Below, in pieces: positions 27,902-52,296 of a DNA stretch of 64,000 nt (the first letter of the stretch is position 1; each line of letters begins with the position of its first letter). Under the pieces are notes generated by a model, which worked only from the letters and a program-made list of their open reading frames with translations, was not told where the DNA came from and made no database searches. The position numbers and the translations under genes were made by a program. The DNA is from a virus (lineage: Duplodnaviria > Caudoviricetes), in the IMG/VR virus record IMGVR_UViG_3300008113_000041, positions 807 through 64,806 of that record, one strand, 5' to 3'.

Positions 27902-30900
27902 ATGAGTCAATTTACTCCAAGTTCCCTCGGACAACCAATCCCTTCGGGAACTGAGCCTGATTTCTCATACAATTTATTCGGTGGTTTACAACCAGTAGAA
28001 GTAAACAACCAACAACAAGTATTACGATACTCACTACCAGATGAGTTTGCAAAGACAGACGAACTAAAAAGAAAGCAAGAAGAAATTTCTAGCTTGCGTT
28101 TGTTTGGTGCTGTTGATAAAGATGATCCTAACTTTAAATCTATTGTTCAAGTTGGACAATACGAAATTCCAACTTATATTGGAATGCGCCAAGGAACAGG
28201 ATTAAGCACAAGCTTAGATGCAGAAACAGTTGGCGAACAAGAAGTGAATAGACAAACAACAGCTGGGTCTGGTAGAAGAGGAATCTTTGCCGAAACCAAT
28301 AGAGAGTTTAATAGACTAATGGTAAAGACGGCTAACTCAGAAGCTGATATGTTTCCGTTTGATGCTAATGAATCATACGACTGGGCTACACAAAATCTAG
28401 CTGGTAGCTTTGGTTCTTGGCTAAAATCTGTCGGAGATCTTATTGGTTGGACAAATACAGAACAACAAGATAACGCTGCTTTTAATGTTGAGTTAGCTTT
28501 AAGCCATGAAGATAGAAACTGGAACGGTGCATTAGCAGCAGAAGCAACAAATAAGTTTCTAACAGATAAACCAGAAGTTGCTCAATACTTTGAACTTACT
28601 GGTGTTGATCCTCATCAATTTACAAGACTTAGTAAGAATCCTTTAGGTTGGACTTTCCAATTAAACCAAGCCGTTATTCAAGCACAAGCAAATCTAAGAA
28701 TGCAAATATACGAAGAAGAAACTGGTTGGATTGGAAAGCAAGCAGATAAGTTATACTATGGTGTTAAAGATCCTACAATGATTCGGGATCTTATAGTGAC
28801 AACATTGGCATCTTATGGTTTAGCTACAACAGAAACCGCACTAGCTGGTTTAGCTAGAACAGGTATCGCTAGATCAGCTGGTGCTGCAGGACTTATAGAT
28901 AAAACCAGTCTTGCTGTAGGACGATATGGCGTTCGTGGTCTTTCTGGTGGTCCTCTTACTGGTCCTATTGAAAACTTTATTTTCCAAACATCTAAAGTAC
29001 TCGTTCCAACAGTCGGAGAAAAAGGATTCCAAACAGCAGTTGCTCGTAGCGTAGCTATTATGGGAGAAGCTGCTGCGTGGTCTGGTATCTCTGCAGCCCA
29101 AATGCAAAAAGAAGATTATAGATTTAAACATCTAGTTTTAAACTTTGGAGAATATGCTCCTGAGTTTAAATACGATCTGTCCTCTATCTATCAAGCTGCC
29201 TATGAAGGTGGTTTATTAGGTCTTGGTATGTTTGGATCTATGCGTGTTGTTATGGGCGGTTTAGGAGATATCTCAGCAGTCCGTAGTGCAAAACCAGGTG
29301 AAAAGATTTCTACTCTTTCTAGACAGATTGCAAACTCATTAGATAGTTTTGCAACAACAGTGGAAGGTAGAACAGTCTTTGGAAATAGACTAGGACAAAA
29401 TAGAGGCATTGCTTTCGGTAACTGGTTAGATAAGAACATGAAAGGTTTGGATAATAGAAACACCGCAAGCATTGTTGTTAATGGAAAAAACCTGTACCAC
29501 TTTGATGGGTTCAGTCCAGAAGTAATTTCAAAGGCAAACTTTAATGAAGCAAAGTCTAGAGAAATTGTATCTCTTTGGGCTAAAGCCACAAACACAGTAG
29601 AGACTCCAGAATCTTTATTTGATCCTGAAGTATTATCTACTAAAGGTTTAACATACGATCAGGTTATTGATACTCTTAAGACATTTAATAAAGCAATTGA
29701 GATTGGTGTAGAAGCTAGAAAGTCAATGCCAAGAGGTATGTTTGAAGCCATTAAACCATATGATGAGTTTAATGAAAGCTTTATAAATAAGGTTGCTCAG
29801 GATACTGAAGACCAAGCAACAAGAACTATTATGCGTGGCATCGTGGATGAGTGGCGAAGTCTTAATGAACAAAGAACCGCTAAGATAAACGCAGAACAAA
29901 ACAAAGATCTTACTGAACTTTCTGATTTAGAATTTGAAGAAAGACGAACTGAACTAACAACTAGATTATCCGAATTAGAAGAAAAGAAAAAGTCATTTGG
30001 ATCTAATTCAAGTAAACTAGATAAAGAAATTTCAGATATTCAAGGACAACTTAAGCAAGTTAATTCTGAGATAGCTAAACTTAATAGCAAAGGAAAGTAT
30101 CCTAATGCTTTAAAGAATATCTCAGACGCACTACGAATTACAGTAAAGAAACTAAATGATCTTACTCAAAAGCAGCAAGACGATAAACAAAAGAGACTTG
30201 CTGACATTGACAAGAAAGCAGAAAAAATTGAACGAAAGAGACAAATCTATTTAGCTTTACCTGATGAAACACCTGATCAGATTACTTATAAGAATAGACT
30301 ATTAAACGATTTGATTGGTGAAGAAGAAAAACTAAACGCAAAAAGAAATAAGATTGAATCTGAAAAGGGAGCCACAAGAAAAGAACAACGAGAACTAGTT
30401 AACCTAGAAAAAGAAAAGAGTGAACTAGAACAACTAGAGTCTCAGTGGTTGTTGAAAGATAAACAAGAAACAGATCTGCAAACCAAGCAAAAAGAACTAG
30501 ACGATCTTAAAGCAGAATACGAAGTTAAAGATGCAGATGGAAGTACAAATGAACAACGGATTGTCAGTACAAAAAATAGTATAGATGAGCTGGATCGTGT
30601 TAAAAAAGAAACAGCAGAATACGATGCTAAGGTTAAGGACATTAAGCAACGATTCAATGCGTCTAGAGAAAAGTTAAATCAAGGAAAAGATAATATTGTA
30701 TTCCTGGGTTTAACCGACAAACTAAAGAGACTGAATGATCTAAAACTACAAAGACAAATTATTAAAGACCCAAAGAGATTAAAGAGAATAGATAGAATTA
30801 TTAAGCAGTTAGAAGCTTACTTTGAAACGGAACAAGGAGTCAAAGAAGCAGTAAGAGCAAAGATTATCGAAGATACCATTGATAATAATCGTGGTTTTGG

Positions 30901-33900
30901 TACAGCAAACACTGTAGCAAATATTCTTCTTGCTCTTAATATTCAAGCGGCTTTTGGTAAAGCAGAAAAGAATAAGATCTCCATTAAGACTATTACTTCT
31001 AAGTTTAAGGAAGTAACAGGTAAAGATGTAGATTACGGTAATATCAAAGATCTATTTAACTTACAAACAGTTACAAACAATCTTATTGGTATTACCCATA
31101 TTAATTCTGCAGATTCCTTTATAGGAAAACTCTTAGACTTAGAAACAACTACAACAGTTTCTACTAATGGTGGTATTGTTAAGGGTTCCGCTATCGTTGG
31201 TTTATTTAGAAACATACTTACAAGACTAGATAAGCGAGAAGGAAAAACTACTACAACAGTATTTATTTCAGATAGAGATTTTACTTTAACAAACCAAGCT
31301 AAGGCTGGTCTTAATAATATTATAAAGATAACCATCAAAGAAGATGGAACATTTGCAACAGAAATGCAATTTGGAAAATTAGAAATGGATGAAGCTGGTA
31401 ATGTCAAATCTACCAAGCCTGAACTATTCAATGATCCAGATCTTTCTGATCAAAATGTAATTGATTGGAATACATTTGCAGCAATGGTAAAAGAATGGAA
31501 AGATGCGGCAGATGTTATTATTAAACAAGAAGATGAGAAAGCTGTAAAACTTCTTAGCACTACATTAGATGAAATGCAAGAAGATATGAAAGCAATTCTT
31601 ATTAATGCCCAACTCTTCTCCGAAGAGATCACTGGTGTTTTTAAAGATTTGCTTAGTTCCCTAGAAGATGGTGATGTATCTAATGTAATACTTCAAATGA
31701 AAAAAACATTTGACGATCAAATTAAAGAAGCAATAGAAGCTACATCTAAAGAACAATACCGAAGAGTGTATACTGGAATTATTGCTAATATGTTTGCATT
31801 AGAACAAATCAAACCACTGTTAAAGCAAAGAGTTGACGCTCTTAGTAATGCCGAACTAAAAGCAAAAGCAACTAAAGAACTTGCCGAACTTGATAATAGC
31901 AAGTATACCGTAACACAAGCAATTCAAGATTACCATACAAGACCTAAAACAAATAAAGTAGAAACAAAGTCAGATAAGAAAAAAGCAAAGACACAACCAC
32001 TAGATTTAACTGGTGTTACTTTTATAGAAGAAACAACAGCCCCAGTTAAAGCAGATACAGAAACTCCTGCACTTGTTCCTACTATAGATAATCTAAAGTT
32101 AGTCTTTGGCTTAACAGATAAAGAAGCTCGCGTTGGTTCTATAATCATGCAAGCTTTGGGATCTAAAGTCGTAGATGGATTAACAAGTAATGTTGGTCTT
32201 GCTAAGGGTGGAGAAGAAAACGAACTTGCTCGTATCTTCCTAAAGCGTGTTGATGGTGGAGTAAAAGCACTTATAAAAGCAAATGAAGGCGCAGATCTAT
32301 TCTCTATTTCACACGAAATGGGTCACTACGCTAGGTTCTTCTTCTTAGATCCTAGAGCATCTGTAGCAGAAAGAGCAGCTGTTGGTATTACTGATAGCAT
32401 GTACGATAAAGTTATGTCTTGGTTAGGCGTAGCAAAAGACGCTGACGGTAACTACGAAAAACTAACAGACGCACAAGAAGAAAAATTTGCTAATGGTTTT
32501 GCTTTGTATCTTATGAAGCTTCTACAAGGTGATGGCAAGGCAACCAATACTGGTATTCAATTTGCATTTAATAAACTTGGAGAACACTTAGGAGACTTAG
32601 GTAATAAGTTTAAATCACTAAAGAAAACCAAAGATATTGAAGCAGCCAAGTTAACCCCAGAAGCAGAAGAAGTCTATGCTGCTCTTTTATCAAAGACTTC
32701 AGAAGATAATATCACAACCATCTTTATGGATGGATTCAAAGATATTATTTCAGATCTTACCGAAGAGCAAAAGACTTTACTGGGTCAAAGAATTCTTGGA
32801 TCTATGCGTTGGGAAAAATATAAAGCTGGAATAGAACTAGAAAGAGAAGCTGCCGCAAAAGCAACTTCTGCTGTTAGTGAAACTATTGCTGAAGCAAATA
32901 CAATTCCTGTAGAGCGTGTAGATACTGTTGCCGATTCTGTAGAAACCCCAAAGGTAGATATTGAAAAAGCCACAACACCAGCGGCTAAGGTTGAAGCGGC
33001 TGCAGAAGCAGCTGCTGTAGATGTCGCTATAACAAGACTAGAAGTAAAAGCAGATATTGATAAGGAAGTTGCAACATCACTTGCAACTACTGTAGATGCA
33101 ATTATTACTAGAACAGAACCTGAAGTAGAACCTGTACCCACACTAACCACAACGCCAAAGATTACAACTGAACGCGAGTTAACGCTGAATGAAATATCTA
33201 ATCTTAAAGAAGGCGATGTAATAAAGTATACAAGTAGTAAGAGCCGTACAGACTATACTGGTGTTGTCAGAGGAACTTCCGATCAACTTAGTACTAGATG
33301 GGTAGTTGTAAAAGTTACTGATACAGAAGGTCGCTCTAAAACAATTAATAAGAATATTAATTGGTGGTTAAAAAATAAAGTAACAGGTATTGTAGAAGCT
33401 GAAACACCCACTTCTGTAGAAACAAAACCAACAGATGTTACTGCTGAAGTTAAACCAGAAGAAACAGTAACAACGGCTATTGTTACAAATATTAGGAGAG
33501 AAAGAAAGCCACGAACAAAGAAAACAGTACAAGAAACTCAACAACAAAATAATCAAGCTAATACTACAGTTCAAGAAGCAGCTGTAAAAATTGATGAAGT
33601 TTCTCAACAAGAACAAACAGTGGCTGCTACTATTATTGAAGAAGTAAGAGCAATAGAACCAACGGCAGTTCCTGTTGTTACTAAACAACTTGAAGAAAGA
33701 GTAAAACCTGATTTGAGTTTCTTAGGAGATAGAAGATCTGAAACACTAGATAAAGCTGTTGAAGACTTTGAAAAGCTTAATATTAAACTCAGTTTCCTTA
33801 GTTCTATTATTGGACTTTCTGAAGCAGAAGATATTGTAAAGTTTAGAGCTTTACAAGAAAACCCAATATATAAACAAAAGCAAGAAAGAGGAGAACTAAA

Positions 33901-36900
33901 TAATGAGTTTAGTATTGAAGGAACACTACAATATATTTCTGGTTTATTAAAACAAGAGTTAAGTTTAGAAAATGGAACCGTAGATTATTTAGGTTTAAGA
34001 ATAAATAACAAACCTTTATTACTTACATCAGAACTAGTTGGTGTTATTAAAGCAGCAGCAACTAAGTTAGGTTTCAAAGAAGAAACTTTCTCCATGATGG
34101 TAAGAGCAACCTTTGCGGTTGAAAAAGCAAAGACAGACCATTTAATGTCTATCTTGGGAAAGAAACTAAAAGCAATAGAAACAAAGATTGCTGAAGGTAA
34201 GAAACTACAAACAGCAGATAGAGAAGCTATAGCACAAGTGAAAACAATTGCTGATATAGAAGAAGCAGCTAAACAACCAACTATTGAAAAAGTTTCACCA
34301 GAAAGACAGGAACTAGCAAAGGTTATATTTGAGGCTTATGATTCCTTGTTTAGAGCGCGTAGATTAGATGAAGATTCTATAAACAATCTTTATGTTAACT
34401 TTGTTACAAAAGAAGGCTTAGTTAATCTCCTTAAAACTAGACTTGGTGATGATTACTTAGATCCTAACTTTATTAGGAATAAACTAAAAGCAGAACCAGC
34501 TAGAGTTGGAGATCCTATTTACAACCTTCTTGTGGGTTCTATTAAGAATCTAGAGTTGTCTGAAAGAAGATCTAAGATAGGACAGATAACAACAAAGATA
34601 AAAGAAGTTAATGAAAAGGGAGAAGTTGTTGAAGAAACAATAATTCAAAAGTTTAAAAAAGAAGGAAGTCAAAGAATTGGTAAGGGTGAAAACGAAGTAG
34701 ATATAATTGGTAGAGAAACTTCAAGACGAACATTACAAGAGCCAGAATTAGAGATGAACATTGAACATGCCAAAGCAGCAATTAATAGTGGACATGTGTT
34801 TGGTTCCTTGTTCAAGTTTATTCAAGCTCAAGGTGATACTGATGTCTTAAACTTCTTCGTAGCCAAGATGCAAGCTATTCAAGAAGGCCACGCAACTAAC
34901 TATAAGTCTTATATTGCTAAACTATTTGATGTTCATAATATTAAGAGAAACGGAACATTTGCATATACTTCAGAAACCTTAAAAACTCTTGAAGAAAAAG
35001 CAGAAGCATATATAGATGAATGGTTGACTGCTGTATCTGAAGTAGAGCCAGATATTGCTAAAGGTATTAGAGAAGTTATCCCTGGTGTCAAAAAAAGAAA
35101 ACCAAGGGAAGTTACTATTAAAGACGAAGCTTCATTTGCACAGTCTTTAAAACAACTAGAGTATTTTACAAAGTCTACAGGAACAAAACTTTTAGAAGGA
35201 TTTGATTGGTCTAAAGCTCAAACAACGGAACAAGAAATTTTACAAACTTTTAAAAGTAATTTCCCTAACCAACCAACTTTAAGAAATTTACTAAATGTAA
35301 TAGAAGAAAAAATACCATTAGATTCTCCAATAGCCTCATCTTATAAAGATATTGTAGCTTTGTTTAAACAAGCTCCAAAAGATATTATAGATGAAACAAA
35401 AGTAGAAATTAAAGACGCTAGAGCTAGGGTTACTCTTGTTGGTAATATAATTAGTGTTTCAGAAAAAAATAATATTAATACAATATTCCATGAAATAGCA
35501 CATGGTGTTACTGTTCAATATATTAATAGATACATTTCTAAAGCGTCTAAATTAGATTCAGAAACTCTGTATAAACAAAGTGCAAAACAAATGATAGATA
35601 CACTAATTTCAATTCAAGATAATAAAGTATTACCAAAAGAAGTATCAAATATGATAAAAGCGTATCTTACTTATCTTACTAATAGATTTGGTTCTTTAGA
35701 GGTTGTAAAAGGAGAGAAAAAAATTGAGTTAAAAAACTTAGTAATGATGCAAAATTTTGAAGATTTAGAATCTATTGTTATGGATAAAACCTATGCTTTT
35801 GCTAGAGAACAAGAAGATAATTATAAATATGGATATCCATTAATATCAAAAGATGCTGCTACTACTCAAAGAATAAAAACAGCTTGGACTAAATTTAAAA
35901 ATAAAATGTCTACGGTTGAAAATGGAGTGTATTCAATTTCATTAGCTCCAAAAATAATTCAAACTATTTCTAGACTTGATTATACTTTTATTGATGATTC
36001 TTTTGCTTCTTCTAAAAAAAACATTGAGCTAGAAAATATTTTCCTTATTAGAGATATAATAACAAGTATAGAAAATAAAAGAGGATTTATTGAAGGTAAA
36101 GATTATTTCATTCTTGAGGAAGGTTGGGGCGAAAAACGAAGAGTATACATTATATATACTAAACCTTTAGTAGAAAACCTTAAACAAAAAGGATTAGTTG
36201 AACCAGAGTTTGAAAATAACTCAGCAAATAATTACAGGCTTACTGATTTAGATTATGATAATGATTTGCTATTAGCTAATAAAGATTTACTTTTACCTAA
36301 ATTAATAGGATTTAAAAAAAGTTTACCAGATGTATTTAAAACAAATGGTTTACCATATGCGGCTGGTAGTATCTATGAATTTATTTCTGAAATATTTACA
36401 AGAGAACAACACGCAAGATTTTTAGATAATATAAAACTAAATAATGAAAATAGTTTAAAATCAGTATTAGTAGACGCTATAAGAGCGTTGTGGGGAATAG
36501 AAGGAAACGCAAACAAACAAACATTACTAACGAAAGTTCTGAGTAATGTAGAAATTATTTCAAAAAACGAAAGAAACTTTATTGCAGTTAAATCAATAAC
36601 AGATCAATCTAAAGTTTTAAGTTTTGCTCAATCAAAGAAAATAAAAACAAAAGAAAGCCGTGGTATAAAAAAAGCAGAAAAATTTAGGCAAGATTTAAAT
36701 ACAAGTAAGGGTAGATGGTTAGTTCTTGCTACAAAACTAAAGCAACTAATCAATCAAGATATTCCAAACGAAACAGAAATTGCCAAAGTAAAAGAAGAAT
36801 TAAACAGTGTACTTGCTACTATTTCTGTAAAGAGAAAGGGATTAAAGGCTTTAGGTTTATCTGAAAACTTTAGTGATAAAGATATCGCAATAGTAAATAG

Positions 36901-39900
36901 ATTGCTAGAAGGACTAGATCCAGTTGATGATCTATCAACTAGACTTGGTGTTGAGAATGCAAATAGAATTATTACTGCTGATATTTTAGAACTAAAAGAT
37001 CCAGAACAAAAGATGGAATTTGTTAAGGCTTTCCGTGGTATGATTAAATCCAAACCACAACTAAGATCCTTCTTACGGGAATTAGAAAAAGTAAAAACAG
37101 ATCCAAGCTTTATCTCTAAGGTTGCTGATGAATTAGCTATTACAAGAGAAGACGATGAAGCAGTAGATACTAAAGGTTTACGAGACATGAGTACAGAACA
37201 GCGAAGAGACTTTTTAATTAATGAGTTTATTCCGAAGATTAGCGAAACACTAGGTGAACGGGCTGGTCCTCAGAATATTCTTAGTAAGTTCTTTGAAGCC
37301 GTTCCTGGTGGCTCTGCTATTGCTAGACAATTCCAAAGAAGAGTTGGTGGTAGCGTATCTTATGCGGATACTGTAAACTCTCCATACCTTACTTTGGCTT
37401 TCCTAGCAAAGATACTAGATCCTAATATTGATGTTAGAAACGGAGAACTATCTGGTAACTTCAGATTGTTCTCAATGGAAGAAGCAGAAGCAGAAGCAAA
37501 ACTTATTCTAACAAGTTCTGGTATTCCTGATATCTTGTCTGAGATTCAAGCAAAGAAACTAAATGAAGAACAGCTTAAGGCACTAAATAACATTGCTTGG
37601 AGATACCTTACAAAGCCCGAAGAACTACCAACAGATACTCCAAATAAAGAATTAATACTTGGTTTAATAAAAGCACGAAACAAGTTTAATGCTTTAGTAT
37701 CGGATTATCTAAAGCAGTACGGTGGGTTGGGTGCTAAACTAGAAGATCCAGATATGTATGGAACTTCTCATAGACCTAGCCTATATGCTATAAACAATCC
37801 AGATGAGTTTGTGAAAGCACTTACTAAACACGAAACAGAAAAGTTCTTAAACAGTAATGAACTTAACGGTGCTACTTTACACGCTATGGGTTGGATTGAA
37901 ATCACAAGAGCTAATGATGACGGTCATGTTGATATGGTTGTCATTAGAGAAGATTCTCCAATTGCTGGTTTGTTTGAAGACAAACAAATAACAAAGAAAG
38001 ACGCAAAGAAAACTAAAAAGATAACATGGGGTAAGGCTAAGAAACAACTACAAATAAAAGATGAAGAAGGTAATCTTAGACTTCCACAAGAAACCCTAGA
38101 TAGATACTACGATGCATTGAAGGATGTAACAGATGATTATCTTCCTGCTTGGACTGAATACTACAAGAACTTTGCAAATCCAACAGCAATCTTTGTATCA
38201 ATGCGTACTGCTAAGGATCGTATTCTACGGGTTCCTGAAGGAGAAAGTGATAACAAATCTCTATCTCCAAAGACATACTATGCAAACAAAGCAAGTGATT
38301 ATACAGAAGAAAGATTATTTACACACGACGAGTTAGTTGGTAATGAAGAACTAGCCAAGTTCTTTAATGACAATATTCTTGGTTTGACTATTGAAGAAGC
38401 AAATGTTAGACTCTTCCAACATGTAGTTACTAAGAAACTAACTGAAGTCTTTGGTGTACGAATGTCATTCGATGATCTTCTTCAGTTTGCAAAACTAGCA
38501 GAACTTAACTATGTCAGAGATATAGATAAAGTATCTGTAAAAGAAAGAGAGAGTTTCTTTAGGGGTTGGGAAAAGATTCGTAGATCTTGGTTACAGAAAA
38601 CAAATAGACTATCAACTGAATCTTCGGATTATGATCCTAGCTTTAAATGGTTAATGGAAAGTTCTCCAGGAATTATAATGGCTCTTGGTGGATTATCTGC
38701 TGGTACTAAGACTGTTGTATCTGAGTTGCCTAGAGCATTGCTGGCTTCAGATAGAAATAGATCCTTTGTTACTCAGTTTATTCCCAATCTATTTACCATG
38801 TTAAAGTATACCTTTGGATTAAATGCAGCTCAAAAGAGACTAGAGTTGTTAAAGCAAGCTTCTGCTATTCACTGGACTAGAGCTGTCCTAGAAGACACCT
38901 TCTCCGCTAACTACGAACACTCAGCTTCAAGACACGATTATGCTGGTCCTGTTCTTGGTAGACAAGGTTGGTGGAGAAACCTATCAGGTAGATGGAACTC
39001 TCTAGTCGAAGCAAATAGAATGGAAAAGACCGCTAGTGATAAAGCTAGCAATATAGTAGCTAGTATTGGTTGGCTTGGTGGTAGTTTACTACGCTGGTCA
39101 AACGAAATGGTAAATGTCATTTCAATGCAAAATGCAATGCATAACATCCAATCCAATATAACTAACTTTAGAAATCTTGCTATTATGTTAGATAAGTATG
39201 GTACTGAACTATCTGGAAAAAGCCCAAGACGAGCTGAGTTTAATAAACTAGCTAGATCCTGTGGTATCTCTCCAGAAGAAGCATTAGATCTATCAAGATC
39301 TGGTTTGCTGGATTTAGAAACCATAAATATTATGCACAAAGCATTGACTAAAGATTATAAGTTAGTTACTACTGAAGGTCTTCCAGATTCTTCCAAGTTA
39401 CTCAAGTGGGCAGAAACCCTATCAGCAGAAGATCAAGTAAAAGCAAAGAATGCTGTTTATAAACTAGCAGGATACATTAAGACTCTGGCAAGAAACACAA
39501 ACACCGAACCAACTTTATTGGATACTAGAGTTACCGTTGATCCTGTAGCAAGAGCCTTAAGATTGTATACTCAGTTCGGTACTAGTAACTCTGTCCAAGC
39601 AATTGGTAGAGTTAGACGATCTGGTAATGCAGCCTTGGCTAGATTCGTAGCTGGTCAGTTCCTAATGCAAGTAGCTGGTGGTGTTCTAATCTCCTATCTC
39701 CTAAATGCTGGAGATGAAGATGAAGCAACAAATGAAATCACCAGTTCACCTGTAGCCTTCATGTTAACCAATGCTGCTAGAATGCCCGTATACGGAAACT
39801 ATAGCTGGCTCTTTAAGTTATTGGTTACTGGTGCCTATCAGACCTATGCCCATGTTGCACAGGAAGATGTACCAAAGAGCATGGAAAGACTAGACCTACC

Positions 39901-40348
39901 TAATGTTATTGACTCACCATTCCAGTATAGATTTGATGCCATGACTAAGGACTTTGAGAAGATGCCAGGTATCATAACCAGATATATGGAAGGTAAGCCA
40001 CTAACTAGAAAGCAAAGAGAACAAGCTATACAAGCTATACCATTCTTAGATAATATGTTATTATCAGGACTAATAAAGAATGCTCTTGAAGAAGAGTACA
40101 CCCCACCCACCGTAGGTAGGGTATATAATCCTGGTATTATTGAATCTAAGAAGCCAGCTCCAAAGGCCGTAGAATCGCCTATGGAGCCTAGGGTACAACA
40201 ACCTATGGTAGAGCCTACTCCAGAGGTAGGAATGCCTAGGGAGCCTATGCCCGTGGCTAGAACGACTCAGCCATTGAATATACCCAGTAGACCTGTAAAA
40301 CTACAGGGAGTATCTACTGAGTTGGCTGATCTGTTAGAAAGATTCTAA
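27902..40348 (+). CDS. giant internal virion / polyvalent protein (gp16-like position), 4148 aa
   Basis: Uninterrupted 12.4-kb ORF; coiled coils; HEMGH..EEKFA and HEIAH..EFISE zincin-like motifs; hydrophobic segments in the N- and C-terminal regions. Confidence 0.75.
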   Translation: MSQFTPSSLGQPIPSGTEPDFSYNLFGGLQPVEVNNQQQVLRYSLPDEFAKTDELKRKQEEISSLRLFGAVDKDDPNFKSIVQVGQYEIPTYIGMRQGTGLSTSLDAETVGEQEVNRQTTAGSGRRGIFAETNREFNRLMVKTANSEADMFPFDANESYDWATQNLAGSFGSWLKSVGDLIGWTNTEQQDNAAFNVELALSHEDRNWNGALAAEATNKFLTDKPEVAQYFELTGVDPHQFTRLSKNPLGWTFQLNQAVIQAQANLRMQIYEEETGWIGKQADKLYYGVKDPTMIRDLIVTTLASYGLATTETALAGLARTGIARSAGAAGLIDKTSLAVGRYGVRGLSGGPLTGPIENFIFQTSKVLVPTVGEKGFQTAVARSVAIMGEAAAWSGISAAQMQKEDYRFKHLVLNFGEYAPEFKYDLSSIYQAAYEGGLLGLGMFGSMRVVMGGLGDISAVRSAKPGEKISTLSRQIANSLDSFATTVEGRTVFGNRLGQNRGIAFGNWLDKNMKGLDNRNTASIVVNGKNLYHFDGFSPEVISKANFNEAKSREIVSLWAKATNTVETPESLFDPEVLSTKGLTYDQVIDTLKTFNKAIEIGVEARKSMPRGMFEAIKPYDEFNESFINKVAQDTEDQATRTIMRGIVDEWRSLNEQRTAKINAEQNKDLTELSDLEFEERRTELTTRLSELEEKKKSFGSNSSKLDKEISDIQGQLKQVNSEIAKLNSKGKYPNALKNISDALRITVKKLNDLTQKQQDDKQKRLADIDKKAEKIERKRQIYLALPDETPDQITYKNRLLNDLIGEEEKLNAKRNKIESEKGATRKEQRELVNLEKEKSELEQLESQWLLKDKQETDLQTKQKELDDLKAEYEVKDADGSTNEQRIVSTKNSIDELDRVKKETAEYDAKVKDIKQRFNASREKLNQGKDNIVFLGLTDKLKRLNDLKLQRQIIKDPKRLKRIDRIIKQLEAYFETEQGVKEAVRAKIIEDTIDNNRGFGTANTVANILLALNIQAAFGKAEKNKISIKTITSKFKEVTGKDVDYGNIKDLFNLQTVTNNLIGITHINSADSFIGKLLDLETTTTVSTNGGIVKGSAIVGLFRNILTRLDKREGKTTTTVFISDRDFTLTNQAKAGLNNIIKITIKEDGTFATEMQFGKLEMDEAGNVKSTKPELFNDPDLSDQNVIDWNTFAAMVKEWKDAADVIIKQEDEKAVKLLSTTLDEMQEDMKAILINAQLFSEEITGVFKDLLSSLEDGDVSNVILQMKKTFDDQIKEAIEATSKEQYRRVYTGIIANMFALEQIKPLLKQRVDALSNAELKAKATKELAELDNSKYTVTQAIQDYHTRPKTNKVETKSDKKKAKTQPLDLTGVTFIEETTAPVKADTETPALVPTIDNLKLVFGLTDKEARVGSIIMQALGSKVVDGLTSNVGLAKGGEENELARIFLKRVDGGVKALIKANEGADLFSISHEMGHYARFFFLDPRASVAERAAVGITDSMYDKVMSWLGVAKDADGNYEKLTDAQEEKFANGFALYLMKLLQGDGKATNTGIQFAFNKLGEHLGDLGNKFKSLKKTKDIEAAKLTPEAEEVYAALLSKTSEDNITTIFMDGFKDIISDLTEEQKTLLGQRILGSMRWEKYKAGIELEREAAAKATSAVSETIAEANTIPVERVDTVADSVETPKVDIEKATTPAAKVEAAAEAAAVDVAITRLEVKADIDKEVATSLATTVDAIITRTEPEVEPVPTLTTTPKITTERELTLNEISNLKEGDVIKYTSSKSRTDYTGVVRGTSDQLSTRWVVVKVTDTEGRSKTINKNINWWLKNKVTGIVEAETPTSVETKPTDVTAEVKPEETVTTAIVTNIRRERKPRTKKTVQETQQQNNQANTTVQEAAVKIDEVSQQEQTVAATIIEEVRAIEPTAVPVVTKQLEERVKPDLSFLGDRRSETLDKAVEDFEKLNIKLSFLSSIIGLSEAEDIVKFRALQENPIYKQKQERGELNNEFSIEGTLQYISGLLKQELSLENGTVDYLGLRINNKPLLLTSELVGVIKAAATKLGFKEETFSMMVRATFAVEKAKTDHLMSILGKKLKAIETKIAEGKKLQTADREAIAQVKTIADIEEAAKQPTIEKVSPERQELAKVIFEAYDSLFRARRLDEDSINNLYVNFVTKEGLVNLLKTRLGDDYLDPNFIRNKLKAEPARVGDPIYNLLVGSIKNLELSERRSKIGQITTKIKEVNEKGEVVEETIIQKFKKEGSQRIGKGENEVDIIGRETSRRTLQEPELEMNIEHAKAAINSGHVFGSLFKFIQAQGDTDVLNFFVAKMQAIQEGHATNYKSYIAKLFDVHNIKRNGTFAYTSETLKTLEEKAEAYIDEWLTAVSEVEPDIAKGIREVIPGVKKRKPREVTIKDEASFAQSLKQLEYFTKSTGTKLLEGFDWSKAQTTEQEILQTFKSNFPNQPTLRNLLNVIEEKIPLDSPIASSYKDIVALFKQAPKDIIDETKVEIKDARARVTLVGNIISVSEKNNINTIFHEIAHGVTVQYINRYISKASKLDSETLYKQSAKQMIDTLISIQDNKVLPKEVSNMIKAYLTYLTNRFGSLEVVKGEKKIELKNLVMMQNFEDLESIVMDKTYAFAREQEDNYKYGYPLISKDAATTQRIKTAWTKFKNKMSTVENGVYSISLAPKIIQTISRLDYTFIDDSFASSKKNIELENIFLIRDIITSIENKRGFIEGKDYFILEEGWGEKRRVYIIYTKPLVENLKQKGLVEPEFENNSANNYRLTDLDYDNDLLLANKDLLLPKLIGFKKSLPDVFKTNGLPYAAGSIYEFISEIFTREQHARFLDNIKLNNENSLKSVLVDAIRALWGIEGNANKQTLLTKVLSNVEIISKNERNFIAVKSITDQSKVLSFAQSKKIKTKESRGIKKAEKFRQDLNTSKGRWLVLATKLKQLINQDIPNETEIAKVKEELNSVLATISVKRKGLKALGLSENFSDKDIAIVNRLLEGLDPVDDLSTRLGVENANRIITADILELKDPEQKMEFVKAFRGMIKSKPQLRSFLRELEKVKTDPSFISKVADELAITREDDEAVDTKGLRDMSTEQRRDFLINEFIPKISETLGERAGPQNILSKFFEAVPGGSAIARQFQRRVGGSVSYADTVNSPYLTLAFLAKILDPNIDVRNGELSGNFRLFSMEEAEAEAKLILTSSGIPDILSEIQAKKLNEEQLKALNNIAWRYLTKPEELPTDTPNKELILGLIKARNKFNALVSDYLKQYGGLGAKLEDPDMYGTSHRPSLYAINNPDEFVKALTKHETEKFLNSNELNGATLHAMGWIEITRANDDGHVDMVVIREDSPIAGLFEDKQITKKDAKKTKKITWGKAKKQLQIKDEEGNLRLPQETLDRYYDALKDVTDDYLPAWTEYYKNFANPTAIFVSMRTAKDRILRVPEGESDNKSLSPKTYYANKASDYTEERLFTHDELVGNEELAKFFNDNILGLTIEEANVRLFQHVVTKKLTEVFGVRMSFDDLLQFAKLAELNYVRDIDKVSVKERESFFRGWEKIRRSWLQKTNRLSTESSDYDPSFKWLMESSPGIIMALGGLSAGTKTVVSELPRALLASDRNRSFVTQFIPNLFTMLKYTFGLNAAQKRLELLKQASAIHWTRAVLEDTFSANYEHSASRHDYAGPVLGRQGWWRNLSGRWNSLVEANRMEKTASDKASNIVASIGWLGGSLLRWSNEMVNVISMQNAMHNIQSNITNFRNLAIMLDKYGTELSGKSPRRAEFNKLARSCGISPEEALDLSRSGLLDLETINIMHKALTKDYKLVTTEGLPDSSKLLKWAETLSAEDQVKAKNAVYKLAGYIKTLARNTNTEPTLLDTRVTVDPVARALRLYTQFGTSNSVQAIGRVRRSGNAALARFVAGQFLMQVAGGVLISYLLNAGDEDEATNEITSSPVAFMLTNAARMPVYGNYSWLFKLLVTGAYQTYAHVAQEDVPKSMERLDLPNVIDSPFQYRFDAMTKDFEKMPGIITRYMEGKPLTRKQREQAIQAIPFLDNMLLSGLIKNALEEEYTPPTVGRVYNPGIIESKKPAPKAVESPMEPRVQQPMVEPTPEVGMPREPMPVARTTQPLNIPSRPVKLQGVSTELADLLERF

Positions 40349-40355
40349 TTATTCT

Positions 40356-40395
40356 GGTCCTGTACCCTGAAATATGGGTACGGGACTATTCGTTG
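40356..40395 (+). terminator. hairpin / probable terminator after last late gene
   Basis: GGTCCTGTACCC-TGAAATAT-GGGTACGGGACT; weak U-tract. Confidence 0.55.
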
Positions 40396-40396
40396 G

Positions 40397-40409
40397 TTGG
40401 GGCTATAGA
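40397..40409 (+). promoter_or_regulatory. putative phage RNAP promoter near genome end
   Basis: Exact TTGGGGCTATAGA, intergenic. Confidence 0.8.
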
Positions 40410-40580
40410 TGATATATAATCATTATAAGGAATTTTCTTTTACCTTGTAGGAATACAAGGGTTTTCTTTAAGTTGATATTATTATAGGGTTAGCCCACAG
40501 GATCTCCTAAGTAAGCAAGGGACTCCGTGGTTTGCCTAACACGGAGCTTGGGTCTTTGCCGTCTACACGGGAGGTCAGCT

Positions 40581-40691
40581 ATGATATCTATTGATGGGTT
40601 AGATGGTCCACTGGATTTTGAGGTGGATGATGATGACTTTGACATGGAAATTGACTTAGGGGTCAGAAATTTATTCTGGGTTCCTCCCTAA
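40581..40691 (+). CDS. acidic peptide, 36 aa (not in ORF track)
   Basis: MISIDGLDGPLDFEVDDDDFDMEIDLGVRNLFWVPP; GGAGG 6 nt upstream. Confidence 0.45.
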   Translation: MISIDGLDGPLDFEVDDDDFDMEIDLGVRNLFWVPP

Positions 40692-40886
40692 ATCCCTCCG
40701 CTGATGGCCCCCCTTTAGCCCCTCGGTCGGCTCGGGTCATAACCTCGGAGGCTGATAACCGAATCGGGCATAGCCTACCCTGCCTTTCTTTCGCGGCATA
40801 CCCTAGGATACAATCCTGCAGCGTATACCATCGAAGGGAAAGCATCGTAGCCTACCCTATCCGTTCCAAGTTAAGGAGTCTGAATC

Positions 40887-41261
40887 ATGTCGATCCTCGC
40901 TATCATCGCCAAGTCTTCTCTGCTCGTCAAGTTCGACGCGGCTATCGTCAAGGGTGATATCGTCAACCCCGCTACGCGCAAGGTGGACATGCGCTCGGTC
41001 AAGTCCCTCGCGGTCAAGGATGCCACGGTCAAGGGTTCGGACGGTAAGGACTACCCTTTGATGGCGGTCTGCGTCAAGATGCTCGGGGGTAACCCCGTGA
41101 CGGAAGACCTCCGCACCTCTGACTTCGCGGTCAAGGCGGGTGAGGTCATGCGCGAGTACCTCATGGCGGAACGCCCTGACGCGGGCTGGGTTAACGCCAA
41201 CACGGCTAACAAGGCGAACCCGAAGGCTGCGCTCGCTAACCTCGACGCGGTTACCTTCTGA
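40887..41261 (+). CDS. early hypothetical protein (first early gene)
   Basis: AAGGAG RBS; strongly GC3-biased codons. Confidence 0.85.
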   Translation: MSILAIIAKSSLLVKFDAAIVKGDIVNPATRKVDMRSVKSLAVKDATVKGSDGKDYPLMAVCVKMLGGNPVTEDLRTSDFAVKAGEVMREYLMAERPDAGWVNANTANKANPKAALANLDAVTF

Positions 41262-41292
41262 TTCCATCGGGGGGAGGTTACTAACCCCCAAC

Positions 41293-41326
41293 ATAACCCT
41301 TCGCCCTAACGGGTGAGGGGTTATTT
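41293..41326 (+). terminator. hairpin after first early gene (terminator or processing site)
   Basis: ATAACCCTTCGCCC-TAAC-GGGTGAGGGGTTAT then TT. Confidence 0.5.
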
Positions 41327-41367
41327 CCGTTTGGTCATTCGCCTCAAAGTTAAGAGGAGTCGTGGTT

Positions 41368-41694
41368 ATGGTTACCATGTTTAGCGTGTGCGAAGTTAAG
41401 GACGGGGCAGTTAAGGAACTCAACTATCTGCGTTCGCTTAATGAGGCGAAGGCTTATGCCTCGGGTCGTTATGATGGAACCGTTAAGTTCCTTCCATTGT
41501 CCGCTGTGGTTATGTCCGTCACGGGTGACGATCCACGCTTTATGCGGGAGGATGTTTACATTGTCGAGGTTAAGATGACGCAGGATGAGTTGGACGAGCC
41601 TATGGGCGGCAAGGCTGTTCCCGATAGGTTGTACTGGGAGATTGTCGAGTCGTGGGATAAGTTTGAAGCCTCTAACGGAATGGGGGTTAAGTAA
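41368..41694 (+). CDS. early hypothetical protein
   Basis: AAGAGGAG RBS, ATG 41368. Confidence 0.75.
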   Translation: MVTMFSVCEVKDGAVKELNYLRSLNEAKAYASGRYDGTVKFLPLSAVVMSVTGDDPRFMREDVYIVEVKMTQDELDEPMGGKAVPDRLYWEIVESWDKFEASNGMGVK

Positions 41695-41696
41695 TC

Positions 41697-42059
41697 ATGG
41701 GTAAGATCAATCCAGTCATGCTCACCTGCATTAACCAAGCCATCGCTAACGCGAAGGCAACTAGGTCGCGTGAGGCTATTCACGCCGCAGTTATCAGCCT
41801 CGCCCGTAATGCTGGAATCAGTTATGGGGTTGCGGCTAACATCCTGCGGGTTAAGTCGGGCTTGGATACGCCCGATGCGGATGAGGCTCGCGCACTTAAT
41901 GAGCGCGGGGCTTATCTCGGGCAGTATATCACGCCCGTTAAGGATTACAAGCCTATCACGACAGACCCTAACCCGCAGCCAGTTAAGGCGAAGGCGGTTA
42001 AGCCGAAGGTTGTTACCACCGTTACGGTTATCCCGTCTGACCCTAACTTCTTTCTCTGA
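41697..42059 (+). CDS. early basic protein, possible HTH
   Basis: LARNAGISYGVAANILR resembles an HTH; Lys/Pro/Val tail. Confidence 0.7.
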   Translation: MGKINPVMLTCINQAIANAKATRSREAIHAAVISLARNAGISYGVAANILRVKSGLDTPDADEARALNERGAYLGQYITPVKDYKPITTDPNPQPVKAKAVKPKVVTTVTVIPSDPNFFL

Positions 42060-42075
42060 TAAGGAGTCATCAGTT

Positions 42076-42270
42076 ATGAGCGAAGAACTTAAGTCCCTCA
42101 TCCTTGAGAGTCAGACAGATATGATTCTGTCGGGTAGCCTTGAGCCTATCAAGGAAGAGGTTAAGGTGAAGCGGGTTAAGACTGACTACGATCCGCACCG
42201 CGCACCTAACTGGTTCCGCGTTGTGTGGGACGAGGTTATGGCTGACACGGTTGAAGGTCAACTTGGTTAA
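42076..42270 (+). CDS. early hypothetical protein
   Basis: AAGGAG RBS; true start is internal to track ORF 41770. Confidence 0.7.
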   Translation: MSEELKSLILESQTDMILSGSLEPIKEEVKVKRVKTDYDPHRAPNWFRVVWDEVMADTVEGQLG

Positions 42271-42282
42271 GAAAGGAACACC

Positions 42283-42594
42283 ATGATTAACAATCTTGAC
42301 GAGTACAATAAGTGGCAGGCTATGCAGGTTGCTCCTATTGTGAGCCAACTTAATGAGATCACGGGTGTCTTTGATGCGCTTATGCGCGAAGAAGATATGC
42401 CTGCACAGCGTATGATGTTCTTGGTTAGCGCGGCTTGGAAACAGTACGACAAGGTTATCAATGCTGATGGTTATGCCATGTGGTGTAATCATTCAGAGGT
42501 TATTGCCGCGAGGGAAAACCTCTACAATACGCACTTGTCGCTTATGTCTCTCGTTTGTTGCGACGATTATAAGAACAAGCAAGTTTGGGCATAG
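42283..42594 (+). CDS. early hypothetical protein
   Basis: AGAAAGGA RBS. Confidence 0.75.
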   Translation: MINNLDEYNKWQAMQVAPIVSQLNEITGVFDALMREEDMPAQRMMFLVSAAWKQYDKVINADGYAMWCNHSEVIAARENLYNTHLSLMSLVCCDDYKNKQVWA

Positions 42595-42702
42595 TCTATA
42601 TAACAGACTTGTCGAAACACAAGTTATGAGTTATGACTTGTGTCGTATAGGATTGGTTATCCTATGCCTGATGAGACAAACCAAGTTAAGGAGATTTCAA
42701 GT

Positions 42703-42861
42703 ATGAAACTGTTCTTTGTTCGGTACGGGTCTTTCTCTGTCCATGTTATCGCTGCAAATAAGGATGCTGCGGCTATCCTTGCGGTGGATTTGTTTGTGGA
42801 TACAGGACTACCGTTTAACGCCGATGTAGTTGTTGTTACGCTTGTTAAGGACTACAACTAA
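42703..42861 (+). CDS. early hypothetical protein
   Basis: AAGGAG RBS. Confidence 0.65.
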   Translation: MKLFFVRYGSFSVHVIAANKDAAAILAVDLFVDTGLPFNADVVVVTLVKDYN

Positions 42862-42875
42862 AGGAGATTTCAGTT

Positions 42876-43022
42876 ATGCTCGACGGAACAATCGGCCCAA
42901 AGTGGTTGGTTCTAGTTGTCATCAACAACAAGGTTAAGATGGAGTTGTTTAACTCTTTGGTTGAAGTCAACAACTACATGAACACCGTTAAGGGCTATGA
43001 AATCAAGGTCTTCCGCGTCTAA
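42876..43022 (+). CDS. early hypothetical protein, 48 aa (not in ORF track)
   Basis: AAGGAG RBS; MLDGTIGPKWLVLVVINNKVK... Confidence 0.65.
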   Translation: MLDGTIGPKWLVLVVINNKVKMELFNSLVEVNNYMNTVKGYEIKVFRV

Positions 43023-44973: not shown

Positions 44974-45183
44974 ATGAGATGTTCTGATTGTGGTAATAAT
45001 ATACCACAAGAAAGACTTGACTTTTTTCCTGACATAACTTATTGTGTTGGTTGTGCTGACAAGCATGAACCAATCAAGATATGCAGGATTATCTATCCCC
45101 ATAAGACAGGCGGGGAACTCTTTGTGGCTGAAGGTAAGCAGAACATTGATAGGCTTAACGCCGAATATAGGAGATCACGCTGA
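44974..45183 (+). CDS. DksA/TraR-type C4 zinc-finger protein
   Basis: CSDCGNNIPQERL..P..YCVGC. Confidence 0.8.
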   Translation: MRCSDCGNNIPQERLDFFPDITYCVGCADKHEPIKICRIIYPHKTGGELFVAEGKQNIDRLNAEYRRSR

Positions 45184-46921: not shown

Positions 46922-47258
46922 GGTTACTGTTGATTCTTTTAATGCGTTTATGTCTATGCTTCCGAAGCGAAGCAGTATGGATATCCGTCCCATGATTAAG
47001 TTTGGTTCTAATGATAATAGCTTGAAGCTTAGTATTCAAGCATCTGAGTTTCACTATAGTAGTCCTAGGCTTAATAACTTGAATAACTACACTCATTATG
47101 AGGTTGGTTTTCCATCTAGTGTAGAGCCTATGCTTATGCCTTACATAGAGGTTGAGGGAGACAATCCAACAGAAACTGTTTATCCTTATGTTCCTGTGGA
47201 AGTTATTGTTGATATCGCAAATAAGTATGGTGGAACAATGGAGGTGTGGGATGCGTAA
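46911..47258 (+). CDS. hypothetical protein
   Basis: LSIQASEFHYSSPR..YEVGFPS..VYPYVP; AAGGAG RBS. Confidence 0.8.
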   Translation: MSNKVTVDSFNAFMSMLPKRSSMDIRPMIKFGSNDNSLKLSIQASEFHYSSPRLNNLNNYTHYEVGFPSSVEPMLMPYIEVEGDNPTETVYPYVPVEVIVDIANKYGGTMEVWDA

Positions 47259-47556
47259 GATTGAACAAGAAATGATTCATGCTTTTATTAATCGTGGTAC
47301 TAAGAAGAATAAGAACGACCATGTAGTTACTAGTTGGGGAACTACAGCGTGGTATTATAGAGGCAATCTTATTGCTGTACTTAAGGGTGATTCTTATTGT
47401 CAGATTAATGATGCTACTTGGCGATCAAAGACTACAAAGAGTAGATTGAATGCTATTCTTTATACACTTAAGCCAGACACACGCATCTCTCAAAAGGATT
47501 ATACTTGGTACATTAACGATAAGGTTTGGCAAGGTAGTCTTGGCTTTTATTACTAG
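47251..47556 (+). CDS. hypothetical protein
   Basis: MRKIEQEM..W.SKTTKSRLNAIL; GGAGG RBS. Confidence 0.8.
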   Translation: MRKIEQEMIHAFINRGTKKNKNDHVVTSWGTTAWYYRGNLIAVLKGDSYCQINDATWRSKTTKSRLNAILYTLKPDTRISQKDYTWYINDKVWQGSLGFYY

Positions 47557-51297: not shown

Positions 51298-52296
51298 ATG
51301 GCAGCAGAGATTTATGAAGATGATGGTGCTGTGTTTGCTCAGTCTACTTGGCATGGTCTTGGTAAGTATGTTGGTGATGCGCTTGAACCTAATGAGGCTA
51401 TGCGTATTGCTGGTCTTGATTGGACTGTAGCAAAGGTTCCTGTGTATGCTTCTTACAATAACAATAGTATCTATGATGCTGACTATGCCGCTATTGTACG
51501 AGAAGATAACCAGAAGATTCTTAGTATTCAGTCTTCTGATTATCAGCTTGTACAGAATAGTGAGGTGTTTGATCTTGCTTATGCTCTTAGTGATACGGTA
51601 AAGGTTGAGTCGGCTTTTAGTATGAACAATGGGCGAAAGCTTGTCGTTCTTCTTAAGGCTGGTTCCTTTATCTCTGCTCAGGGTAGTGATGATCAGATTG
51701 ATGAATATATGTGTATGTGTAGTTCTCACGATGGTACTATTGCACTTGGTGGTTTTGGTACCAGCATTCGTGTTGTTTGTTCTAATACTTTGAGCATGGC
51801 TTTTGCTGATAGAGCAAAGAAGAAGAAGCAAATGTATCGTGTTACCCATACTGGTAACATGGAAGATAAGCTTGACTCTATGCGTAAGGCTTTGGCTCAG
51901 TATGCAAAGACGGCTAAGTTCTTTGAGGAGTCTGTTCAGACTCTGAGTTCTAGAACCATGACTCAGGATGATATCCAGCGGTTCTGGCTTGATGTTTGGG
52001 GTATTATGGAAGAGCCTGTTGTTTCTAATCCACAGACTGATGATGAGAGTCGTAACTATCGTGAGGCTGTTGCTGCTATCTCAACTTGGTCTGAAACCTT
52101 TGATCAGGAGCGTAAGGATCTGAACCTTACGCCAAATCTGTGGGTTGCTGCTAATGCAGCGACTAAGTGGTTGCAGCATAAGAATCCTGCGCGTGGTCGT
52201 AAGCCTAGTGCGGAAAGTCGAGCATATAATAATATCCTTGGTAAGCAACAGGATACAACCCTTGCTATCATGGGTTATGCATTAGAGCTTGTTTGA
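51298..52296 (+). CDS. DUF932-family protein
   Basis: WHGLG, AGLDW.V, YQLVQN, SSHDG, IRVVCSNTL, HTG motifs. Confidence 0.88.
   Translation: MAAEIYEDDGAVFAQSTWHGLGKYVGDALEPNEAMRIAGLDWTVAKVPVYASYNNNSIYDADYAAIVREDNQKILSIQSSDYQLVQNSEVFDLAYALSDTVKVESAFSMNNGRKLVVLLKAGSFISAQGSDDQIDEYMCMCSSHDGTIALGGFGTSIRVVCSNTLSMAFADRAKKKKQMYRVTHTGNMEDKLDSMRKALAQYAKTAKFFEESVQTLSSRTMTQDDIQRFWLDVWGIMEEPVVSNPQTDDESRNYREAVAAISTWSETFDQERKDLNLTPNLWVAANAATKWLQHKNPARGRKPSAESRAYNNILGKQQDTTLAIMGYALELV

Follow-up and report, generated by a model that had tools for sequence, protein, structure and literature searches.

A lattice of phased TpA steps with a period near 14.7 nt runs through five small genes of a T7-like virus genome

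Organization of the locus

The stretch analysed here, called the window throughout, comprises 64,000 of the 64,806 nucleotides (nt) in the single contig of the virus record IMGVR_UViG_3300008113_000041 (positions 807 to 64,806; Duplodnaviria, Caudoviricetes). Its gene plan is T7-like and runs on one strand, all large open reading frames (ORFs) lying on the plus strand. At the passage from late to early genes, as judged from gene order, the window carries a lattice of TpA steps which recur about every 14.7 nt through five small genes and two non-coding spacers. This lattice is real, it is selected at the level of the nucleic acid and it is tied to position rather than to any one gene. A metagenomic relative, referred to as L003, has it as well. 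The features of the locus are listed below, with protein lengths in amino acids (aa) and with R denoting the phase coherence on the lattice.

40872–42702, plus strand: core lattice, about 125 units at a mean period of 14.64–14.69 nt over 1.83 kb
40887–41261, plus strand: lattice gene 1, 124 aa, with mostly GTCAAG, GCTATC and GCTAAC; no Pfam family
41262–41367, plus strand: non-coding spacer with a conserved hairpin; all 7 of its TA steps fall on lattice points (R = 0.83, offset −0.5 nt)
41368–41694, plus strand: lattice gene 2, 108 aa, in a frame different from that of gene 1; no Pfam family
41697–42059, plus strand: lattice gene 3, 120 aa, four predicted helices and a disordered, lysine- and proline-rich tail
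42076–42270, plus strand: lattice gene 4, 64 aa; its L003 homologue is 39% identical and stands in a different gene order
42283–42594, plus strand: lattice gene 5, 103 aa, with a weaker lattice (R = 0.48)
42595–42702, plus strand: structured conserved spacer at the lattice end, two hairpins followed by the ribosome-binding site of the next gene
40500–42250, no strand: GC-rich island holding the lattice, 51–56% GC versus 36–39% in the rest of the genome
40740–40871, plus strand: tentative non-coding onset of the array, with CATAAC, GATAAC, CATAGC, CATACC, TATACC and CCTATC at steps of about 14–16 nt
40349–40886, plus strand: conserved junction between late genes and lattice genes, 84% identical to L003 versus 58% in the flanking giant protein
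40581–40691, plus strand: acidic small ORF of 36 aa (MISIDGLDGPLDFEVDDDDFDME...) with a Shine-Dalgarno site, within the conserved junction
27902–40348, plus strand: gene of a 4148-aa protein directly upstream of the lattice region, considered here as context and candidate partner only

Results

Period of the lattice

The Fourier spectrum of TA steps between 40870 and 42600 showed a peak at 14.7 nt with a normalised power of 31.9, the chance mean being 1. Refinement placed the period at 14.69 nt, with a bootstrap 95% range of 14.675–14.71, and the power at exactly 15.0 nt was 2.3. When the whole window was scanned with 254 sliding windows of 750 nt, the power near 14.7 nt exceeded 10 in six of them, with starts from 40751 to 42001 and values of 13.3 to 28.9. 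The best 750-nt window outside the lattice region reached 8.1. With respect to one rigid lattice, 76 of 109 TA steps fell within 2.5 nt of a lattice point, as compared to an expected 34% (p = 4e-14).

In a dynamic-programming trace, the stretch 40858–42717 received 128 points, 14.638 nt apart on average. Most of its steps were 15 nt long (86), the others being of 14 (16), 13 (8), 12 (8), 16 (8) and 17 nt (1). Short steps outnumbered long ones by 32 to 9 in the window (p = 0.0004) and by 30 to 13 in L003 (p = 0.014). Hence, even though 15 nt is the commonest step, the mean period really lies under 15 nt. The natural reading is that of a preferred spacing near 14.65–14.7 bp which coding pressure rounds to 15, while steps of 12–14 nt correct the drift.

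A sequence-only reading, made by a model from the letters of the window, had described a hexamer with a central TA as recurring in phase over this region. Its existence is borne out by the peak at 14.7 nt, as are the mean of about 14.7 nt, here refined, and the crossing of five ORFs; the motif positions which that reading listed agree with the dynamic-programming lattice. The end of the signal, which it had put at about 43000, had to be moved, since the lattice is lost after about 42702.

Structure of the unit

Each unit consists of an A/T patch of about 4 nt, centred on TpA and flanked by G or C, the other approximately 9 nt being unconstrained. Typical words were GTTAAG, GTTATG, GCTAAC, CCTAAC and GTCAAG. 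For the central step the position weight matrix gave values of 0.83 (T) and 0.80 (A); at −2 it gave 0.60 for G, and at +3 it gave 0.85 for S (G or C). Outside of this 6-nt core the information was about 0–0.15 bit per position, in line with the claim of the sequence-only reading that bases between motifs are not conserved. The G at −2 was enriched over general codon bias (0.62 versus 0.36). Dinucleotides of two weak bases (WW, A or T) gave a higher power than TA, namely 33–48, with the top peak at 14.68 nt (power 47.9). Furthermore, the motif was strand-polar: GTTAAG occurred 15 times and CTTAAC never, GTTATG 9 times and CATAAC once.

No helical component of 10–11 bp was present in the WW spectrum of the lattice (power 4.4 at 9.98). 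Bending in register with the helix or a nucleosome-type signal was ruled out, there being no 10–11 bp periodicity of WW. By arithmetic, 14.69 bp would correspond to 1.40 turns of B-DNA of 10.5 bp per turn, which would turn each site by about 144 degrees relative to the one before. Such a rotation per site entails no net bend and no 10–11 bp component.

The GC content was 51.2% within the lattice, versus 35.7% upstream and 38.5% downstream of it. Two long antisense ORFs run through the lattice on the minus strand, at 40857–41423 (188 aa) and 41556–42101 (181 aa); these are probably by-products of the GC-rich composition.

Controls for composition, codon usage and protein sequence

Shuffle controls were run on 40872–42702, for which the observed power was 31.9, and the gene frames were checked. 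None of 1000 synonymous-codon shuffles attained the observed power (mean 13.4, maximum 21.9), nor did any of 1000 codon-order shuffles (mean 4.8, maximum 10.5) or of 500 dinucleotide shuffles (maximum 9.6). Chance and composition were ruled out as the cause, since no type of shuffle attained the observed power. The mean power of 13.4 kept by the synonymous shuffles indicates that the signal stems partly from amino-acid order and partly from codon choice.

The seven consecutive segments, five genes and two non-coding spacers, shared one phase within 2.4 nt. The mean offsets from the 14.69-nt lattice were +1.8 nt for gene 1, −0.5 nt for the spacer 41262–41367, −1.3 nt for gene 2, −0.6 nt for gene 3, +2.4 nt for gene 4, +0.1 nt for gene 5 and −1.1 nt for the spacer 42595–42702. 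As a rough arithmetical estimate, the chance that six further segments would match the first one in phase is about 0.001. Genes 1 to 3 occupy two reading frames and all five genes three, as calculated from their start coordinates. The TA steps lay across a codon boundary 68 times, in tyrosine codons 17 times and in codon positions 2–3 never. Past 42702 the phase coherence collapsed: the three genes that follow had R values of 0.16, 0.40 and 0.04.

Tandem Repeats Finder (minimum score 30) found no repeat in the lattice and two tiny ones elsewhere in the window. A tandem repeat, a minisatellite or a duplication was thus ruled out, since no repeat was found and there was no likeness outside of the 6-nt core. 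The periodicity of lysine, asparagine, methionine, isoleucine and threonine was not significant in any of the five proteins (power 3.7–4.8, with scattered best periods). A five-residue protein repeat was ruled out by this lack of periodicity in each protein, by the in-phase spacers and by the single phase across frames. The sequence-only reading had likewise argued for a code in the nucleic acid and against a tandem duplication or a 5-aa protein repeat. It was right on both counts: codon choice adds signal and the phase was not lost at gene boundaries. Its observation that the spacer 41262–41367 is in phase was also confirmed, and the forcing of dipeptides which it had noted was reflected in the residues at the T|A boundary, with valine before it in 34% of cases and lysine or asparagine after it in 25% each. 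To that earlier account we can add the stronger WW signal, the strand polarity of the motif and a possible, weaker onset near 40740.

Conservation in relatives

Six relatives of the giant protein were found, with identities from 81 to 29%, and a locus search with the alignment of this protein returned 11 loci; with a single protein as query it returned none. In L003, where the giant protein is 58% identical, the same lattice was present just downstream of its gene. It extended over about 9650–11400 (approximately 1.75 kb) with a period of 14.53–14.83 nt, and its power reached 21 for TA and 32 for WW. In L003 the dynamic-programming trace consisted of 121 points, and its mean step was 14.642 nt, as compared to 14.638 nt for the window. 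The unit of L003 was more often GNTATC than that of the window.

Homologues of the window genes 1, 3 and 4 were present in L003 (38, 55 and 39% identity), in a different order. The lattice sites of gene 1 stood in the same columns as those of its L003 homologue. The gene in second place in L003 was unrelated to window gene 2 (BLASTP E = 2.8), yet it carried the lattice. In the three aligned gene pairs, YA steps (Y, C or T) at codon boundaries coincided between the window and L003 (odds ratio 10.8, p = 1e-14). The dipeptide differed in 27 of the 42 shared YA columns, for instance Val-Lys as against Val-Ile, Val-Thr or Ala-Ile. The spacer 42595–42702 aligned with 11403–11500 of L003, where the lattice of L003 ends too, and the phase was kept in it.

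The contigs of L001 and L005–L007 contain too little DNA downstream of the giant gene to be informative on the lattice. The L001 contig ends 506 nt past the giant gene (20413–20919), and its tail is 85% identical to L009. The stop may mark either a repeat or a genome terminus, close to the position equivalent to the lattice start. Loose ends of contigs from run X3, corresponding to 40793–41332 of the window, matched L003 at the conserved blocks in a comparison by eye, and an L003-like phage seems to coexist with the phage of the window in that sample.

Parts of the lattice region and genome context

Within the conserved region at 40349–40886, presumed to be a genome junction or end region, there are two copies of TAGCCTACCCT, one of the phage-promoter-like word (at 40397) and a hairpin resembling a terminator. 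The start of the small acidic ORF in this junction is conserved in L003 (MPDIDGLDGPLDW...); the ORF has no Pfam family and resembles T7 gene 19.5 in size and position. The contig has no terminal repeat, and the lattice starts about 0.5 kb past the last late gene, behind the junction region. The tentative onset at 40740–40871 was 2–5 nt off the phase of the main lattice, and the coherence for 40692–40886 was low (R = 0.18).

The spacer between genes 1 and 2 contains a conserved element (GGGGGAGGTTACTAACCCC ... CCTAACGG ... GGTTATTTCC) at 41270–41330, with a terminator-like stem at 41293–41324. One copy of this element is present in the window and two are present in L003 (10100–10150 and 10563–10620); it may serve as a terminator or as an RNA-processing site between early genes. 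A homologue search with gene 3 returned a single protein, 91% identical. Population contigs showed the cassette of early genes to be in flux. One contig had 250 other letters in place of 42317–42602 (gene 5), contigs of two runs omitted 42687–42861, a 52-aa gene, between matching ends of 12 nt, and a 7-nt unit at 42622–42636 was present in an extra copy in two runs.

Matches to PHROGs in the window comprised a single-subunit RNA polymerase, a primase-helicase, a ribonucleotide reductase, a head-tail adaptor or portal, the major head protein, a tail protein and the large terminase. The RNA polymerase was at most 26.5% identical to any counterpart in cultured phages. The terminase gene is followed by ORFs of 224, 350, 1815 and 4148 aa. 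By its size and by its position after the terminase and other late genes, the 4148-aa protein presumably belongs to the internal virion or ejection proteins. No DNA match to the window was obtained with blastn in a phage collection, and two exact conserved words sought in viral contigs gave no match. DNA of the window was present in freshwater and lake metagenomes from many studies. Further downstream, the early/middle region contains genes for a DksA/TraR C4 zinc finger (44974–45180; Pfam, E = 8e-10), for Kyano_Gp96 (47251–47553; E = 5e-20) and for DUF932 (51298–52293; E = 2e-36).

Discussion

A proposed docking track for a cooperative protein

We tentatively favour the view that the lattice serves a cooperative protein as a polar docking track, on those 1.8 kb of DNA which would be packaged last and enter the cell first. 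We infer that the target is DNA, that a protein binds to it, that it lies at the leading end of the genome and that its role is in the handling of that end. The lattice would be a selected, strand-polar array on double-stranded DNA, with about 125 TpA-centred patches spaced by some 14.7 bp over the first five early genes of this T7-like podovirus, and might constitute an enlarged, gene-overlapping counterpart of the short phased arrays near the ends of T7-type genomes. A protein delivered with the virion, made very early or supplied by the host would bind cooperatively, head to tail, with roughly one unit per 15 bp. It would thereby coat the approximately 1.8 kb concerned, and the coat could hold, meter or protect this end, either on entry or when packaging comes to its close.

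Several observations weigh against this proposal. The strand polarity of the motif (GTTAAG 15 versus CTTAAC 0) is equally compatible with a signal at the level of RNA. No nucleoid-protein or DNA-binding Pfam family was found among the 28 early/middle ORFs scanned, for which the Pfam matches belonged to four unrelated families, including the DksA/TraR zinc finger. No binder candidate emerged from the two largest proteins either, the giant protein having no family in Pfam or PHROGs and the 1815-aa protein having no PHROG at E ≤ 0.001 and no Pfam family. Gene 3 was rejected as a DNA binder: for its AlphaFold2 model (mean predicted local distance difference test, pLDDT, of 65) Foldseek gave no match below E = 1 in the PDB, and the Atlas search was empty. 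Furthermore, the order of steps was no more regular than in random orderings (p = 0.40 for the window, 0.16 for L003), and with these non-significant permutations the idea of a rigid long-range ruler built on evenly interspersed short steps was dropped.

The evidence from relatives also calls for caution. In those alignment columns where both residues differ, YA retention was 6/21 versus 13/79, which is not significant (p = 0.22), so that the evidence from aligned YA steps is suggestive, not decisive. Among the loci compared here, those of only two genomes bear the lattice. In five relatives with a giant protein of 28–33% identity (L002, L008–L011) no lattice was seen above shuffle levels, and weak peaks of strong (SS, G or C) dinucleotides at 12.3–12.9 in the distant relatives stayed inside the shuffle range. 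The lattice is therefore not essential to this virion design. Finally, the notion of a leading end is based on gene order and on the analogy to T7; the four runs compared consist of contigs, which show no starts or ends of molecules and in which gaps of coverage do not count as evidence.

The interpretation offered by the sequence-only reading, namely a phased track for a cooperatively binding protein on the first-entering DNA, has thus held in part. Its nucleic-acid-level code stands. For a protein binder and a role in entry, Pfam and PHROG scans and the one fold examined yielded no candidate. Its argument that a period other than 10.5 bp reflects a protein footprint could be correct.

Alternative explanations

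The lattice might act without any protein, as a mechanical code in which kinkable or meltable TpA patches within a stiff, GC-rich duplex tune the way in which the DNA packaged last and ejected first bends, twists, threads through the portal, core or ejection channel or is pulled in by a polymerase. The simplicity of the unit, an A/T patch with TpA between G/C clamps and near-zero information in the rest, would suit such a function, and no binder was found in the family scans. With 1.40 turns per step, every fifth site would come to lie on the same face. The patches sit, moreover, in a GC island which distant relatives have kept: the early region of L002 (21400–24000), L008 (2400–5400) and L009 (2600–4600) has 55–59% GC versus 42–49% alongside. 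As these relatives do without the lattice, the GC island is older than the lattice, and the same fact speaks against a mechanical necessity. So do the non-helical period without a 10–11 bp component, which gives no net bend, and the strand polarity, which a pure hinge does not need. The arrays of T7 and T3 have a period of about 13 bp, which makes the period specific to the lineage rather than set by DNA geometry. All in all, we consider a protein-free code unlikely.

A signal in RNA is in our opinion equally unlikely. Here, GUUAAG, GUUAUG and SCUAAC on the early mRNAs would be recognised by a ribonuclease or an RNA-binding protein, or would keep GC-rich transcripts open or stable. The genes are indeed all on the plus strand and the words are strand-polar by 15 to 0, 9 to 1 and 4 to 0. 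One stretch of 300 nt folded better than its shuffles (z = −3.46), whereas a second one folded like them (z = −0.40), and the Rfam scan of the window showed transfer RNAs only. We put DNA ahead of RNA as the target, since a strict period kept over some 125 units would suit a stiff duplex better than a flexible RNA, since the mean period does not match a whole number of codons, since the phase runs unbroken through the terminator-like hairpin and across genes, and since the tentative non-coding onset uses words of the opposite orientation (CATAAC, GATAAC).

Another reading, distinctly doubtful to our minds, would see the lattice as a rack for a motor. The giant protein delivered with the virion, or a co-ejected partner, would grip the A/T patches one by one and so draw in the leading 1.8 kb like a ratchet, about 14.7 bp per step and in the absence of transcription, halting with the end of the track at the conserved hairpin spacer. 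The first stage of podovirus genome entry would then be measured off by a ruler written in the sequence, and the 13-bp array of T7 would be its small version.

We regard it as quite improbable that the lattice is mostly a relic, i.e. that the early genes were born as ORFans on an expanded T7-like terminal short-repeat array and retain traces of it that selection today maintains weakly or not at all. It is true that the lattice genes are all small ORFans without a family, that unrelated genes have the lattice in common, that T7-type arrays occupy the equivalent position and that the strict test of YA retention was not significant. Neutral decay, however, would erase TA like other positions, and T and A remain at 0.80–0.85 while the others hold about 0–0.1 bit. 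Codon choice adds signal beyond the protein sequence, two lineages with 38–55% protein identity keep a mean step of 14.64 nt, and Tandem Repeats Finder detects no repeat.

Five-residue protein repeats or a compositional or chance artefact are hardly credible: amino-acid order does contribute, as seen from the synonymous shuffles, but no shuffle attains the observed power, the individual proteins lack significant periodicity, and spacers in phase, one phase across frames and non-triplet steps supplied by tyrosine codons do not fit with a repeat in the proteins.

Significance

Besides encoding proteins, the five genes bear another message along their 1.8 kb. Overlapping codes are seldom so clear, and this one, to our reading at the level of DNA, has a measurable cost in the choice of codons and amino acids. 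Should the docking or ratchet track prove true, it would offer an approach to two long-standing questions: the purpose of the phased arrays near the ends of T7-type genomes, and how podoviruses meter the first part of their genome, which enters the cell independently of transcription. The simple Fourier signature can be used to search the genome ends of other phages.

Comparison with known systems

Neither a TA lattice of kilobase length with a period of about 15 bp at the end of a phage genome nor anything on the function of the T7 array came up in our literature search, for which subscription journals were largely outside reach. This left-end array of T7 is the closest known feature to the lattice, and the sequence-only reading had given a good lead in recalling the CCTAAAG arrays of this phage. 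We measured 13 units of CCTAAAG, CATAAAG or CCTAACG at 175–355, with a period of 13.1 bp; the 11 TAAAG sites had a Rayleigh power of 10.1, and the array lies upstream of phiOL and of the promoters A1–A3. In T3, a period of about 12.85 bp was observed (51–250), inside the annotated terminal repeat at 1–231. A scan of the first 3 kb of SP6 and phiKMV with 200-nt windows gave no peak at 13–15 bp above a power of 9; SP6 had a peak at 10.35 nt (power 12.8) at about 1950–2150. The phased arrays of T7, named SRL and SRR, were reportedly described by Dunn and Studier in 1983. The left one presumably starts just inside the terminal repeat, which has 160 bp in T7, and we know of no function for either of them.

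The T7 array sits close to the left end of its one-strand genome, as the lattice presumably does, and like the lattice it is made of TpA-containing A/T patches between C or G flanks. Its units are all in one orientation, and its period likewise does not amount to a whole number of helical turns; the related words CCTAAC and GCTAAC are used in the window. The lattice, however, is about ten times longer (1.83 kb versus about 0.17 kb), has a period of 14.69 instead of 13.1 bp and consists of degenerate units instead of a near-exact heptamer. The T7 array is non-coding and lies upstream of the early genes, whereas the lattice is written through five of them. It also has no partner array across the junction as in T7-type genomes: between 39000 and 40500 the power was at most 1.9 near 14.7 nt and at most 7 at other periods.

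The p6 protein of phi29 forms a cooperative coat which extends for kilobases inward from the end of a linear genome and which reads a periodic structural signal without a strict consensus. The periodicity of this signal is weak and amounts to 24 bp, or 12 bp per monomer, as opposed to 14.69 bp for the lattice, and replication of phi29 is protein-primed. The lattice genes had no Pfam match, although the presence of a p6 model in Pfam was not confirmed. Arrays of the ParR, TubR and omega type, with head-to-tail sites 7–20 bp apart, nucleate a cooperative helical filament of protein and DNA. Such centromere or iteron arrays comprise 4–10 near-identical, non-coding units, in contrast to the approximately 125 degenerate units inside genes described here, and no partition genes were recognised in the family scans of the window proteins. 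In the two-step DNA transfer of T5, the first step halts at a cluster of structured repeats or palindromes. The end of the lattice at a conserved spacer with two hairpins in both genomes offers a parallel to this stop signal, and only a parallel.

A further likeness exists with the internal proteins of T7. According to a review, gp16-C is proposed to ratchet the genome into the cell without transcription, with a clamp at about 850 bp, and it binds DNA without sequence preference (PMC8954989). A large internal protein and a defined leading stretch of DNA are thus found there, as are a presumed internal protein of 4148 aa and a 1.8-kb track here. The binding of gp16-C is reported to be independent of sequence, and no homology was found between the 4148-aa protein and gp16. 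A periodicity of similar length has been reported for adeno-associated virus genomes, where YY/RR dinucleotides (Y, pyrimidine; R, purine) recur at about 15 bp under selection (PMC13555545). There the periodicity is genome-wide and belongs to a single-stranded DNA genome of an unrelated virus and host, whereas the TA lattice is local and lies at one end. In both cases, a virus-specific period near 15 nt, apart from the helix repeat of 10–11 bp, is laid over coding sequence.

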